A model generated the notes under the pieces. That model searched no databases. It saw nothing but the letters and a program-made list of their open reading frames with translations, and had not been told where the DNA came from. A program made the position numbers and the translations under genes. Of a stretch of 64,000 bases of DNA, positions 47,386 to 56,382 are shown piece by piece. The stretch spans positions 1,280,001 to 1,344,000 of the forward strand of contig OZ251219.1 in NCBI GenBank assembly GCA_965240465.1. The letters run 5' to 3'. Origin of the DNA: a bacterium. GTDB lineage: Bacteria; SAR324; JACQKK01. Each line of letters starts with the position of its first letter. Position 1 is the first letter of the stretch.

Positions 47386-47411
47386 ACAACCAAGGCCTTA
47401 TTCGTCAAGAT

Positions 47412-47800
47412 CTTATTTGCCAGCTTTTATTTGTCAGCCTTATTTGCCAGCTTTTGTTTGTCAGCCTTAGATGCCAGCTTTTATTTGTCAGCCTTATTTG
47501 CCAGCTTTTATTTGTCAGCCTTATTTGCCAGCTTTTGTTTGTCAGCCTTATTTGCCAGCTTTTATTTGTCAGCTTTTGTTTGTCAGCCTTAGATGCCAGC
47601 TTTTATTTGTCAGCCTTATTTGCCAGCTTTTATTTGTCAGCCTTATTTGCCAGCTTTTGTTTGTCAGCCTTAGATGCCAGCTTTTGTTTGTCAGCCTTAG
47701 ATGCCAGCTTTTGTTTGTCAGCCTTATTTGTCAGAACTTGTTTGTCAGCCTTATTTGTCAGAACTTGTTTGTCAGCCTTATTTGCCAGCTTTTGTTTGTC
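47412..47800. repeat. Degenerate 27-bp (14+13) tandem repeat array
   Basis: cagctttt(a/g)tttgtcagcctta(ttt/gat)gc units, about 14 copies. Confidence 0.92.
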
Positions 47801-48067
47801 TCGCAAATGATCGCTGCTGGATTTTATTCTTCTTCTGAGCTTCTTACGGCTAATTTTGTAAAACCTTTCCAGACTGTCAGCAAATTTATCTTCAATTGTT
47901 TGAATGTCTCTCTCAGTCAACATACTGCTGGGATCAGTACATACGTGCTGAAAAGACATGGTAATCGTTGAGATGCCATTCTCGGTGAATATGCAGTCAA
48001 AACCGTATGGGTGATTGCCTATCCTCAAAATATTAGTAGCAATCTGTGTGTGTTTTAATATGCTCAT
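47630..48067 (-). CDS. Hypothetical protein whose C-terminus runs into the 27-bp repeat
   Basis: About 90 aa of unique sequence then KLANKADKQ repeats. Confidence 0.45.
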   Translation of the reverse strand: MSILKHTQIATNILRIGNHPYGFDCIFTENGISTITMSFQHVCTDPSSMLTERDIQTIEDKFADSLERFYKISRKKLRRRIKSSSDHLRDKQKLANKADKQVLTNKADKQVLTNKADKQKLASKADKQKLASKADKQKLANKADK

Positions 48068-48287
48068 ATCATTAACAGGAGTAAATGGGTTGTTCTAAAC
48101 ATCAGCAATCTGACACATGAGAACGTGTCATGTCAATGTGCCATAAAATACGGTTCTGAATCAAGTATTTTTAAGAATGTTTTAGAAAAGTTTTGGAAAA
48201 GTTTTGGGAAAGTTCTAGAAAAGTCTTAGAAAGTCACTTTCTTAGATCCCCCCCTCCCTAATTCTCAGCATTTAACCAATAAATAAC

Positions 48288-48316
48288 TTGACAAACGCAG
48301 CTCTTAATGATACGAT
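48288..48316 (+). promoter_or_regulatory. Near-consensus sigma70 promoter with extended -10
   Basis: TTGACA-N17-TACGAT, TG-n before the -10. Confidence 0.65.
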
Positions 48317-48383
48317 GAGGAACTTTCATAGAAGCATTGGAAGATGCCAAATAAAGCACGCCAGAGCATGAGAACATGCCAAA

Positions 48384-48543
48384 GCATTAGAACATGCAAG
48401 CATTAGAACATGCAAGCATTAGAACATGCAAGCATTAGAACATGCAAGCATTAGAACATGCAAGCATTAGAACATGCAAGCATTAGAACATGCAAGCATT
48501 AGAACATGCAAGCATTAGAACATGCAAGCATTAGAACATGCAA
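48384..48543 (+). repeat. Perfect 16-bp tandem repeat x10
   Basis: gcattagaacatgcaa x10; degenerate copies upstream. Confidence 0.97.
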
Positions 48544-48701
48544 TGGCATGCGATAAAGGCATGTATCACGATGAAAGAGGGTAGGAAGAAAGTGCCATGA
48601 GGTTCGTCACATCCGTAAGGCACTTTTATTCATGCCCGCCCTAGCATGAAGCAAGTGACGCGAAAGAGAGGAGGTTGCCACTGCACCGTAATCTCTTTTT
48701 T
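48539..48701 (+). ncRNA. Candidate structured RNA ending in a terminator-like hairpin
   Basis: Stems aaagtgcc/ggcacttt, ttcatgc/gcatgaa, aaagaga/tctcttt + T-run; motif GAGGTT-N8/9-CCGTAA twice. Confidence 0.45.
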
Positions 48702-48799
48702 ATAGTGTATTCAATTATTTGAGTACCCAACTATTACCATGTGCTCACTTTGCACAGCAAGCAGTAGCATTCCCAGCCCTCTTTCATTCCCTACTTCCA

Positions 48800-49672
48800 A
48801 TGCTGAAAGTCAAAAAAACTCCCCAAAAACTCCAAAAACATAAGGAAACTAACACCAGCCAAAACCAGAAAAAATACGGTACATCCAAAAAACACAGTCC
48901 ATCCAAAAAACTTAAGCACCAAAGAATCCCCCTGTGGCGTGTAGAACAACTTGCACACTTGGGTATGGAATGGCAAACCATCATCGCTACCATTGACCTA
49001 AGGCGTAAAATCACTGACTTTGAGGTGAAACTCATTCAGCAACGCATCGCTAAGGCACATGCCAGAACTTATCTGAAAATGCTGAAAATCCGCCTCCAAC
49101 AAGCCTCTAAGGGTAGGCTCTCCCCCTTAAATGAACTGATAAAACAACTTAGTAAATCATCACCTGCTAACGGTGGCATCGCTCTTAAGGTGATTAGAAA
49201 TATTATTCAAAATCCGCAACCTCCCCAACTCCATCCCCCGCAGATCCATCCATCCACCTCAGCTCCCGCTCCCGCTCCCGCCCCCGCTCCCCCAACTCCA
49301 TCCCCCGCTCCCGCTCCCGCCCCCCCAACTCCATCCCCCGCTCCCGCTCCCGCCCCCGCTCCCCCAACTCCATCCCCCGCTCCCGCATCTCCATCCACTC
49401 CATCCCCCGCCCCCGCAGCTCCATCCCCCGCCCCCCCAACTCCATCCCCCGCTCCCGCCACCCCTGATGCCACCAATATATCCTCTAATCAACAGCTGGT
49501 ACCATTGGCAGAACGTCATTTCTTCAAACATCTCCCCCCGCAAGAAGCTTATCAAATATGGCTCGCTAGCCATAACGCTAGCAAACAAATAATAAAGATA
49601 AACCCATTAGCTGAACCCCCCTCCCGAGTCATCAGTACTTATTCAATCATGGCTAAAGCTCCTATCTTTTAA
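48800..49672 (+). CDS. Hypothetical basic protein, terminase-small-subunit-like core with Pro/Ala-rich insert
   Basis: VEQLAHLG...IAKAHA...L.Q.A.KG...L..L pattern; C-terminal LPPQEAY; PAP repeats. Confidence 0.5.
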   Translation: MLKVKKTPQKLQKHKETNTSQNQKKYGTSKKHSPSKKLKHQRIPLWRVEQLAHLGMEWQTIIATIDLRRKITDFEVKLIQQRIAKAHARTYLKMLKIRLQQASKGRLSPLNELIKQLSKSSPANGGIALKVIRNIIQNPQPPQLHPPQIHPSTSAPAPAPAPAPPTPSPAPAPAPPTPSPAPAPAPAPPTPSPAPASPSTPSPAPAAPSPAPPTPSPAPATPDATNISSNQQLVPLAERHFFKHLPPQEAYQIWLASHNASKQIIKINPLAEPPSRVISTYSIMAKAPIF

Positions 49673-52129: not shown

Positions 52130-52203
<74 letters not shown>

Positions 52204-55020: not shown

Positions 55021-55431
55021 ATGGAAGGTGGATTTAGAAATAGTGTAGCTTTTGGTGAGCGAATTGAGTACTTGCTGGTAGGAGAAATGATTGGGGAAGG
55101 ATTGGATGTTTATCGTCCTGTGACTGATAACATGGGCATTGATGCGGTTATCAGAAGGAAGGATGGAACATTTATTGAGGTGCAAATCAAGGCTCGCTCA
55201 AAGGACGCAAAGCAAGGTACTTTATTTACCTTAAAAGCTTTCCAAGCGAGAAGAAGTTATTTCTTTATCTTTTACGCTGAGGGAATTAATACCAAGTGGA
55301 TATTTTCCTCTAAGGAACTTGACGCAGAGGCTGTGACAAATAAAACAGGAAAGCACGAAGGCAAGAGGAGCATTACACTTGGTAAAAGATTTGACAAATA
55401 CATAGCTACTAATTTTGATAGGCTAAAATAG
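55021..55431 (+). CDS. PD-(D/E)XK nuclease-like paralog 1
   Basis: E(RIE)...D.MGID...EVQIKAR; TAG replaces GAG so the EYQGG tail is lost. Confidence 0.8.
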   Translation: MEGGFRNSVAFGERIEYLLVGEMIGEGLDVYRPVTDNMGIDAVIRRKDGTFIEVQIKARSKDAKQGTLFTLKAFQARRSYFFIFYAEGINTKWIFSSKELDAEAVTNKTGKHEGKRSITLGKRFDKYIATNFDRLK

Positions 55432-55435
55432 TATC

Positions 55436-55465
55436 AGGGGGGCTAATGTTGCCCCTTATTTTTTT
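55436..55465 (+). terminator. Possible intrinsic terminator between paralogs 1 and 2 (second copy 55902-55932)
   Basis: ggggc-taatgtt-gcccc followed by T-run. Confidence 0.45.
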
Positions 55466-55486
55466 GCATAATAAAAGGAGACACAA

Positions 55487-55912
55487 ATGGCAAATCGTGA
55501 AAATAATCACGCTTTTAATGAGCGAATTAAGTGCTTTATAAAGAAGGAAATGCTTAAAGAAGGGATGGATGTTTATCTTGCCAAGGTTGAAAATGGAGAA
55601 GGTATAGTTGTCAAAAAGGAGAACAAAATACATATTGAGGTGAAAGTCCATGCTAGTTCAAAGGAGGCACAGAAAGGTTGTTCATTTGGATTTGGCTTAC
55701 AACCTTTCCCAAAGAAAAGAAATTATTTCTTTATCCTTTATGATGAAAGAACTAATACCAAGTGGATATTCTCCTCTAAGGAACTTGACGCAGAGGCTGA
55801 GACAAATAAAACAGGAAAAAACAAAGGGGAGAGAAGCATTATACTTGGTGAAAGATTTGAAAAATACATAGCTACTAATTTTGATAGGCTAAAAGAGTAT
55901 CAGGGGGGCTAA
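55487..55912 (+). CDS. PD-(D/E)XK paralog 2, catalytic motif degenerate
   Basis: GID becomes GEG and EVQIK becomes EVKVH; C-terminus conserved. Confidence 0.78.
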   Translation: MANRENNHAFNERIKCFIKKEMLKEGMDVYLAKVENGEGIVVKKENKIHIEVKVHASSKEAQKGCSFGFGLQPFPKKRNYFFILYDERTNTKWIFSSKELDAEAETNKTGKNKGERSIILGERFEKYIATNFDRLKEYQGG

Positions 55913-55953
55913 TGTTGCCCCTTATTTTTTTTGCATAATAAAAGGAGACACAA

Positions 55954-56382
55954 ATGGGAGTTAGTTTTAGAAGTAAAAAATCTTTTGGTGAGCGAATTGA
56001 GTACTGGATAGCGGGGGAAATGCTGAAAGAGGGGATGGATGTTTATCTTCCTACGGTTGATGACATGGGAATTGATATGGTTGTCAGAAGGAAGGATAAA
56101 ACATTTATTGAGGTGCAAGTTAAGGCTAGATCAGAGGACGCAAAGCAAGGTCTTTTATTTGCTGCTCTAAAACCTTTTCCAGTGAGAGAAAATTATTTCT
56201 TTATCTTTTATGCTGAAGCAGTAAATACCAAGTGGATATTTTCCTCTAAGGAACTTGACAAAGAAGCTGGGACGAATAAAACAGGAGAAAATAAAGGCAA
56301 GAGGAACATTGCTCTTGGTAAGAAATTTGACAAATACATAGCTACTAATTTTGATAGGCTAGAAGAGTACAAGGGGGGCTAA
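55954..56382 (+). CDS. PD-(D/E)XK nuclease-like paralog 3
   Basis: DDMGID...EVQVKAR; AGGAG RBS. Confidence 0.82.
   Translation: MGVSFRSKKSFGERIEYWIAGEMLKEGMDVYLPTVDDMGIDMVVRRKDKTFIEVQVKARSEDAKQGLLFAALKPFPVRENYFFIFYAEAVNTKWIFSSKELDKEAGTNKTGENKGKRNIALGKKFDKYIATNFDRLEEYKGG

Follow-up and report, generated by a model that had tools for sequence, protein, structure and literature searches.

A structured element at 48570-48788 of the 64,000-nucleotide window (the whole stretch of SAR324 bacterial DNA analysed here, to which positions refer unless stated otherwise) is one of seven copies of what is probably an independently transcribed ncRNA gene family, whose members are predicted to be modular, to hold several pseudoknots and to act in trans rather than as the leader of a particular gene. 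The features by which a noncoding RNA gene is generally recognised are found here, namely a promoter of its own, a covarying secondary structure and no conserved reading frame. The first-pass annotation had marked positions 48539-48701 as a pseudo-symmetric, pseudoknotted structured RNA that could serve as an attenuator of the downstream ORF. It saw the core correctly, as two tandem modules do covary among the seven paralogues, but drew the boundaries too short and over-read a T-run: the flagged stretch amounts to the 5' two thirds of a single RNA gene in the family. It covers about 60% of a domain of ~220 nt, whose ends at 48570-87 and 48770-88 are joined by a 17-bp helix (13 + 4 bp), and conservation with the related genomic copies extends past the flagged span on both sides.

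The twin motif from which that annotation set out is present in the sequence. Two stems, AAAGTGCC/GGCACTTT (48589-96 / 48619-26) and AAAGAGA/TCTCTTT (48663-69 / 48692-98), each enclose GAGGTT-N8/9-CCGTAA, a pattern with two occurrences in the window where 0.04 would be expected (at least two in 0 of 100 shuffles) and with three in the whole genome. Across the family, GAGG is found on the 5' strand of the internal loop in all 19 motif hairpins, while the 3' strand reads CCG-UAA in nine and shows AAG, AAA, CAA, UAG or an insertion in the other ten, giving the consensus 5' GAGGU ... CCG-N-A-R 3'. The internal loop might be compared with the UAA/GAN-type or loop-E-like motifs, in which a GAN strand lies opposite a UAA strand inside a helix; a literature search for the UAA GAN motif name returned no papers. 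Inspection of the strands also led to the rejection of a K-turn, which they do not fit. The middle hairpin described in the first pass, TTCATGC/GCATGAA (48629-35 / 48644-50), exists as well, but the pairing proposed for its loop with AGGGTAGG falls away: the two share just a 4-base complement (CCCT/AGGG), those bases sit in the closing helix, and this complementarity is trivial.

The other copies were found with a covariance model (R1) built from a single sequence, 48570-48702 of the target copy, because H1 came out shifted by one base when the core was aligned with MAFFT; the remaining copies were then realigned to this model. Seven matches were obtained in the 1.6-Mb genome, with E from 1e-50 to 3.5e-8. 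Two are short two-module forms (the target, ~220 nt, and another of ~250 nt) and five are long three-module forms of ~590 nt. The long forms are 68-97% identical among themselves, with three of them at 93-97% and the others at 68-73%, and match the short forms over ~150 nt only, at ~70% identity.

All copies share one order of elements: the P1 5' strand, the motif hairpin H1, a variable hairpin, GCAA followed by the complement of the H1 loop, the motif hairpin H2, a variable region, GCAA followed by a second loop complement, and finally the P1 3' strand. In the long forms, a third motif hairpin and ~300 more conserved bases separate H2 from the last partner segment. Spacer hairpin 1 ranges from 22 to ~70 nt across the copies, and the second short copy has different hairpins where the target has its spacer region 2 (Table 1). 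Each gene has a strong predicted sigma-70-type promoter to itself and a 5' leader of poor conservation, followed by a closed structured domain. In the predicted fold, a P1 helix of 17-22 bp joins the domain ends and encloses two (short) or three (long) tandem modules, each composed of an internal-loop hairpin, a variable spacer hairpin and a GCAA-linked segment. By pairing with the apical loop, this segment forms one H-type pseudoknot per module. Since the module number is two or three while the letters of the internal loop are invariant, the modules could each bind a protein or ligand semi-independently, as repeats of one site, making the RNA a multivalent platform rather than one catalytic core. 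A transcript of this kind would be a separate molecule acting in trans.

Table 1. Features of the target RNA copy and its immediate surroundings (positions in the window)
Feature	Positions	Strand	Details
Sigma-70-type promoter	48288..48316	+	TTGACA, 17-nt spacer, TACGAT, TG before second hexamer
Predicted transcription start	near 48323	+	From promoter
16-nt tandem repeat, 11 copies, in 5' leader	48365..48543	+	Tandem Repeats Finder, score 333
Leader segment TGCAATGGCA	48539..48548	+	Alternative loop-2 partner, 9/10 complementary
P1 5' strand	48570..48587	+	13 bp (48570-82) + 4 bp (48584-87)
P1 3' strand	48770..48788	+	Pairs with 48570-87 in minimum-energy and constrained folds
Hairpin H1	48588..48627	+	8-bp stem, asymmetric internal loop AUGA / GUAA, GG/CC clamp, 10-nt loop
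Pseudoknot 1, loop-1 strand CGTCAC	48605..48610	+	Complements 48655-60
Variable spacer hairpin 1, 7 bp	48629..48650	+	Constrained fold
GCAA linker, then GTGACG, 3' strand of pseudoknot 1	48651..48660	+	
Hairpin H2	48662..48699	+	8-bp stem, GAGG.../...CCGUAA internal loop as in H1, GGU/ACC clamp; T-run after
Last pseudoknot, loop-2 strand TGCCACTGC	48676..48684	+	Pairs with 48761-69, 8/9
Variable spacer region 2	48702..48756	+	13-bp bulged hairpin 48702-34, 5-bp hairpin 48740-56; constrained fold
GCAA linker, then GCAGTAGCA, 3' strand of last pseudoknot	48757..48769	+	
Conserved hypothetical gene before scpA, outside the RNA	48800..49672	+	Likely ATG 48800

Support for this fold comes from the pattern of substitutions among the copies. 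All of it is drawn from paralogues in one genome, three of which are near-identical, so that they amount to about five independent sequences. In the seven-copy alignment with pseudoknot 1 included, which was fitted to the structure of the model and hence favours it, pairing extends to 94.5% of the 220 cells, and both sides have changed in 15 of the 32 pairs. None of 500 shuffles reaches any of five measures, and in a control with the partners slid by 1-3 columns pairing drops to 38-55%. Two-sided changes affect six of the eight pairs in the outer stem of H1 and every one of the seven pairs of spacer hairpin 1, with a hairpin present at this place in 7/7 copies. H2 is near-invariant, six of its seven stem pairs never varying over the seven copies. 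The ends of the domain form a P1 duplex in every copy (-21.8 to -34.3 kcal/mol), the inner part of which varies between copies. For the five long forms, RNAalifold returned 163 pairs, 16 of them compensated.

The cross-pairing loops of the first-pass annotation fared differently from one another. Loop 1, CGTCAC, complements GTGACG as had been described, and this pairing (pseudoknot 1) recurs in other copies, with 88% of cells paired over the seven copies and one position changed on both sides: where the short forms have CGTCAC/GTGACG, four of the five long forms have CGTCAT/ATGACG. One of these four, a near-identical duplicate, has an extra T in the loop, and the fifth long form has CGTCAA. 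Loop 2, TGCCACTGCA, is indeed complementary to the leader segment TGCAATGGCA at 9 of 10 positions, but the partner that covaries lies downstream, where GCAGTAGCA at 48761-69 is complementary at 8 of 9 positions. Only this downstream partner recurs and covaries across all seven copies; eight or nine of the nine positions of this last pseudoknot pair in each of them, with two-sided changes at three of the nine (3, 4 and 6). Comparison of the copies gives good support to the predicted P1, H1 and spacer hairpin, as well as to pseudoknot 1 and the last pseudoknot.

The leader partner does not behave in the same way. The segment TGCAATGGCA is absent from the other short copy. A conserved leader segment of the long forms can pair with the second loop at 8/8 positions in one copy and at 7/8 (two of them G-U) in three, while the fifth, by reading, offers about five Watson-Crick pairs and one G-U out of eight; comparison of the copies gave no compensatory evidence for this pairing. 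Additionally, the third loop of the long forms can pair with the loop-1 partner, and RNAalifold chose that pairing. With more than one possible partner for several loops, any tertiary arrangement is tentative.

Folding against shuffled controls, named in the first pass as a possible refutation, gives a weak result for the flagged span (z = -1.98, with 7 of 200 shuffles equally good) and a strong one for the whole domain at 48566-48792 (z = -6.96, 0 of 200). The other short copy behaves like the latter (z = -6.47, 0 of 200), whereas the minus strand of the target domain scores z = -4.14 (0 of 200). Further, G-U pairs, which would be A-C if read on the opposite strand, occupy 14 of the 220 alignment cells, and together with the fold scores favour the plus strand. 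In the target copy no stop-free stretch exceeds 33 codons, and the copies have no open frame in common; a small-protein reading was dropped.

The same extended -35 element, separated by 17 nt from a -10 hexamer, stands in front of all seven copies. The promoter of the target copy matches 10 of 12 positions and is the sole promoter-like site on the plus strand in 48000-49000. An 11-mer around the -35 box, ACTTGACAAAC, occurs eight times in the genome, seven times at the RNA loci and once upstream of another gene. The promoter lies 282 nt from P1 in the target as against 113-124 nt in the other six copies, and the leader is correspondingly ~250 nt against ~95-105 nt, because the 16-nt repeat in the target leader has expanded 11-fold; the leaders of the other six copies lack this tandem repeat. 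Its copy number varies, an assembled contig from a public run being shorter here by 80 nt (five units); a public run from another study contributed two identical 151-nt pieces and no further variation.

It is extremely improbable that the element is a site acting as DNA, in replication or recombination or as folded single-stranded DNA, with the repeats serving as iterons. Tandem repeats do lie directly upstream of the target copy, and the structure could form in single-stranded DNA too. However, the repeat-free leaders of the other six copies run against it, tandem repeats being a genome-wide habit, and a promoter at every copy, strand-unequal G-U pairs and covarying long-range pseudoknots would be unexpected for duplex DNA.

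The 1.2 kb between a glutathione-reductase-like gene and the RNA are filled by dense tandem repeats (48365-48543, 47395-47800 and 48179-48235, with units of 16 nt x 11, 27/81 nt x 14.6 and 11 nt x 5, respectively). Within the RNA genes, tandem repeats have expanded in the leader of the target and in a peripheral loop of two long copies, and the helices are free of such expansions. In the long forms, a 13-nt unit in the peripheral region is present about three, two and zero times in three otherwise near-identical copies (L009:1497-2092, L010:1497-2054 and L011:1074-1659; alignment columns ~410-450), repeat slippage being tolerated there and not in the helices.

The proposal that the RNA regulates the gene following it has a natural basis at the target locus. 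The gene in question, as listed from 48719, overlaps the RNA domain at its start; homology with its same-genus orthologue, an ORF directly upstream of scpA (29% identity, E = 3e-26), begins at residue 51, which leaves ATG 48800 as the only plausible start, 12 nt after P1. A cis-acting leader, i.e., a riboswitch or attenuator controlling this gene and scpA, would accord with the common strand and this close spacing, with the RNA's own promoter being the only one predicted on the plus strand in 48000-49000, with the T-run after H2, with the same-strand downstream genes of two long copies, and with the resemblance of two or three similar tandem modules to tandem aptamers. Nevertheless, such a leader is an unlikely account of the family. 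The downstream gene is convergent in four of the seven copies and on the same strand in three, and for the two same-strand long copies its likely start (by reading) lies ~180-330 nt further on, with a ribosome-binding-like site of its own and in one case also a TTGACA box. The same-genus orthologue of the 48800 gene has an upstream spacer of ~140 nt in which the model finds no match, the downstream genes are functionally unrelated, and there is neither a consistent 5' UTR position nor an expression platform to be found.

The T-run itself, with which the last stem ends according to the first-pass annotation, is real in the target and absent from the other six copies. H2 fails the terminator scan, no terminator-like site was found on the plus strand in 48000-49000, and no terminator was found behind P1; a terminator reading of the last stem is unsupported. 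With four of the seven downstream genes convergent and a T-run in one of the seven copies, a general attenuator reading is unsupported. The target copy alone may possibly double as the 5' UTR of the 48800 gene; reading of the interval between P1 and ATG 48800 revealed no purine-rich ribosome-binding site. The gene has no Pfam or PADLOC family. Its product contains an expanded proline/alanine-rich repeat, with DNA repeats at 49262-49464, which is lacking in the 215-aa same-genus homologue.

A second way of accounting for the copies without a trans-acting RNA is to view them as a selfish or neutral repeat, either MITE-like or carried as a passenger of segmental duplications, with the closing helix as a mere terminal inverted repeat and no function in the cell. 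The copies are multiple and have inverted termini, the genome is exceptionally repeat-rich, neither the same-genus genome nor 87 other genomes of the phylum yielded a relative, and three copies arose by duplications in which the upstream gene was copied too. In these three recent duplicates, identity is 93-97% over the promoter-plus-RNA unit and 80-89% overall in the aligned stretches inclusive of upstream DNA. This reading is nonetheless improbable, as two-sided changes fall in internal helices and two pseudoknots and not at the termini alone, G-U pairs make the strands unequal, and copies that have diverged to 68-73% keep the fold. Further, the duplicated unit begins at the promoter, ~120 nt outside the inverted repeat, no shared flanking duplication was seen by eye at the termini, no transposase-like gene lies among the annotated neighbours, and the genome is without a reverse transcriptase match.

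Searches against known families place the RNA outside them. The 4227 models of Rfam 15 at gathering thresholds identified in the 64-kb window only a tRNA at 52130-52203, consistent with the earlier statement that no known riboswitch or ribozyme could be recognised. With E relaxed to 10, positions 48000-49000 gave three unrelated weak matches far below gathering (best E 2.3), and 9144 bases around three other copies gave none with E up to 1. A retron msr/msd RNA was considered and set aside, as the reverse transcriptase model RVT_1 (PF00078), to which control genomes respond, has no match in this genome, which is a single contig though 83.6% complete by marker count; a bacterial Y RNA of the YrlA type was likewise discarded, with no TROVE (PF05731) match in the genome and no Rfam match.

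The compact, pseudoknotted and closed architecture with its invariant purine-rich internal loops might point to a catalytic RNA, self-cleaving or of another kind, or to a degenerate intron. This is a very unlikely identity: no ribozyme or intron model of Rfam responds over 48000-49000 even with E up to 10, the copies sit between genes and not within them, so that exon contexts are missing, and a varying number of modules would be unusual for a single active site.

Relatives were sought in several sets of genomes. The same-genus genome is distant (ScpA 53% identical) and yielded no match to R1; the region upstream of scpA reached at best 7 bits with filters off. The motif pattern gave 35 scattered matches there against 109 in a reversed control, with no clusters, and one such place proved on reading to lack the motif hairpin and to look like coding sequence. 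The promoter 10-mer has three sites in that genome, none with a similar element behind it. A second model, R2, gave two matches without the motif in 18 other genomes of the family (E 0.19 and 0.36) and one in 87 other genomes of the phylum (E 0.06); the latter was rejected as a plain extended hairpin that, by reading, lacks the CCG-N-A-R strand and the closing helix. By blastn, the short form found no match in 40 relatives, and the long form found two ~30-nt matches in the 87 other phylum genomes (E 0.003 and 0.007), at which the model is blank.

In exact-pattern searches of GTDB genomes, JGI metagenomes and IMG/VR, narrow nets which distant relatives could escape, a 20-letter H2 pattern was found at nine loci in genome_contigs, eight in metagenome_contigs and two in viral_contigs. 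With E up to 1 the model matched five, five and two of these, in all but one confined to the stretch of the pattern itself, and was silent at the remaining loci; the exceptional whole-model match (17.5 bits) was dismissed as it shows no H1 motif on reading. A 24-letter pattern of the long form had no locus in viral_contigs, and blastn against phage and plasmid collections found no match. Of 1,682 papers on combinations of SAR324, noncoding RNA and pseudoknot, the ten titles listed held none of relevance. The RNA family thus appears to be new to the databases searched and is, as far as its sequence can be traced, known from this genome only.

Few large, intricately folded bacterial RNAs lack a known function, and every addition to their number has led to new biology. 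OLE, GOLLD, ROOL, HEARO and raiA are large ornate bacterial ncRNAs whose functions are unknown or were recently found, and all of them are in Rfam. The present family resembles them in its size of several hundred nucleotides, its many helices and pseudoknots with conserved unpaired letters, the lack of a single downstream gene and the occurrence, sometimes seen among them, of several copies per genome. However, it is not matched by their Rfam models, consists of two or three repeats of one module, is known from one genome and has a recognisable promoter at each copy. The glycine and c-di-AMP (ydaO) riboswitches likewise combine tandem similar domains, a closed fold, conserved internal-loop letters and covarying stems, but, unlike these, the new family lacks an expression platform and an Rfam match, and four of its seven copies have no downstream gene to regulate.

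The pseudoknot strings of tmRNA offer a parallel, with one hairpin after another contributing a loop that pairs with sequence lying further 3'. In contrast to tmRNA, the new family has no tmRNA or tRNA-like match, exists in seven copies, and has in each module a common internal-loop motif and a spacer hairpin within the pseudoknot loop. Protein sponges of the CsrB/RsmZ type are comparable in their repeated short conserved purine motifs on several hairpins, in strong transcription, which is only predicted for the new family, and in multi-copy paralogues. Their GGA motif lies in apical loops, whereas the conserved letters of the new family (GAGG) lie in the internal loop of a structure that pseudoknots and a long closing helix hold fixed. 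MITE/REP-type repeats share the multi-copy intergenic occurrence and inverted termini, but differ in that the new family has compensatory changes in internal helices and pseudoknots, a promoter outside the inverted repeat and no target duplication that could be seen. What sets the family apart is the repetition of one pseudoknot module two or three times, and the presence of seven diverged, separately promoted copies in a 1.6-Mb genome with no relative detected elsewhere. A reduced genome that keeps seven such RNA genes probably needs them. The family is known from one uncultured organism and its genes are predicted from sequence. The paralogues alone supply enough covariation for a testable secondary-structure model.

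The genomic surroundings of the copies are varied. Among the neighbours are GLUG-repeat proteins, uvrB, an Smr protein, hutH, a UvrD-like helicase and an OLD/AriA-like ATPase, and the genes downstream of the copies have no common function. A GLUG gene lies directly upstream of four of the five long copies and ~2 kb from one short copy, and the GLUG motif has at least 150 matches in this genome; the same-genus genome, in which the RNA is likewise missing, has none. This association is only suggestive, with three of the copies involved being duplicates. A more specific and rather unlikely proposal is that a new modular RNA class arose or was acquired in this reduced-genome lineage along with the large expansion of GLUG-repeat surface-protein genes and acts in trans on the GLUG system, or else assembles into a larger RNA or RNA-protein particle by means of cross-complementary loops. 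Between modules, too, loops and partner segments complement each other. An antisense action of the P1 3' strand on the starts of GLUG genes was also considered and rejected, as the complementary word is not enriched at gene starts.

GLUG-repeat gene regions are found, for example, at 310-351 kb, 692-716 kb and 871-909 kb of the genome and in the window from 61866 onward. At genome positions 1208196-1213260, a long copy is located between the UvrD-like helicase, which has weak GajB-like matches, and the convergent OLD/AriA-like ATPase; this region is a possible defence island. Near another RNA copy, a ThsB-like TIR protein is encoded. Elsewhere in the window, 55021-56382 holds three tandem paralogous small ORFs of 136-142 aa with the C-terminal half in common. 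Finally, an identical 23-base pattern match near both contig ends (72-94 and 1597102-1597124) may reflect the overlap of a circular assembly, or a repeat.
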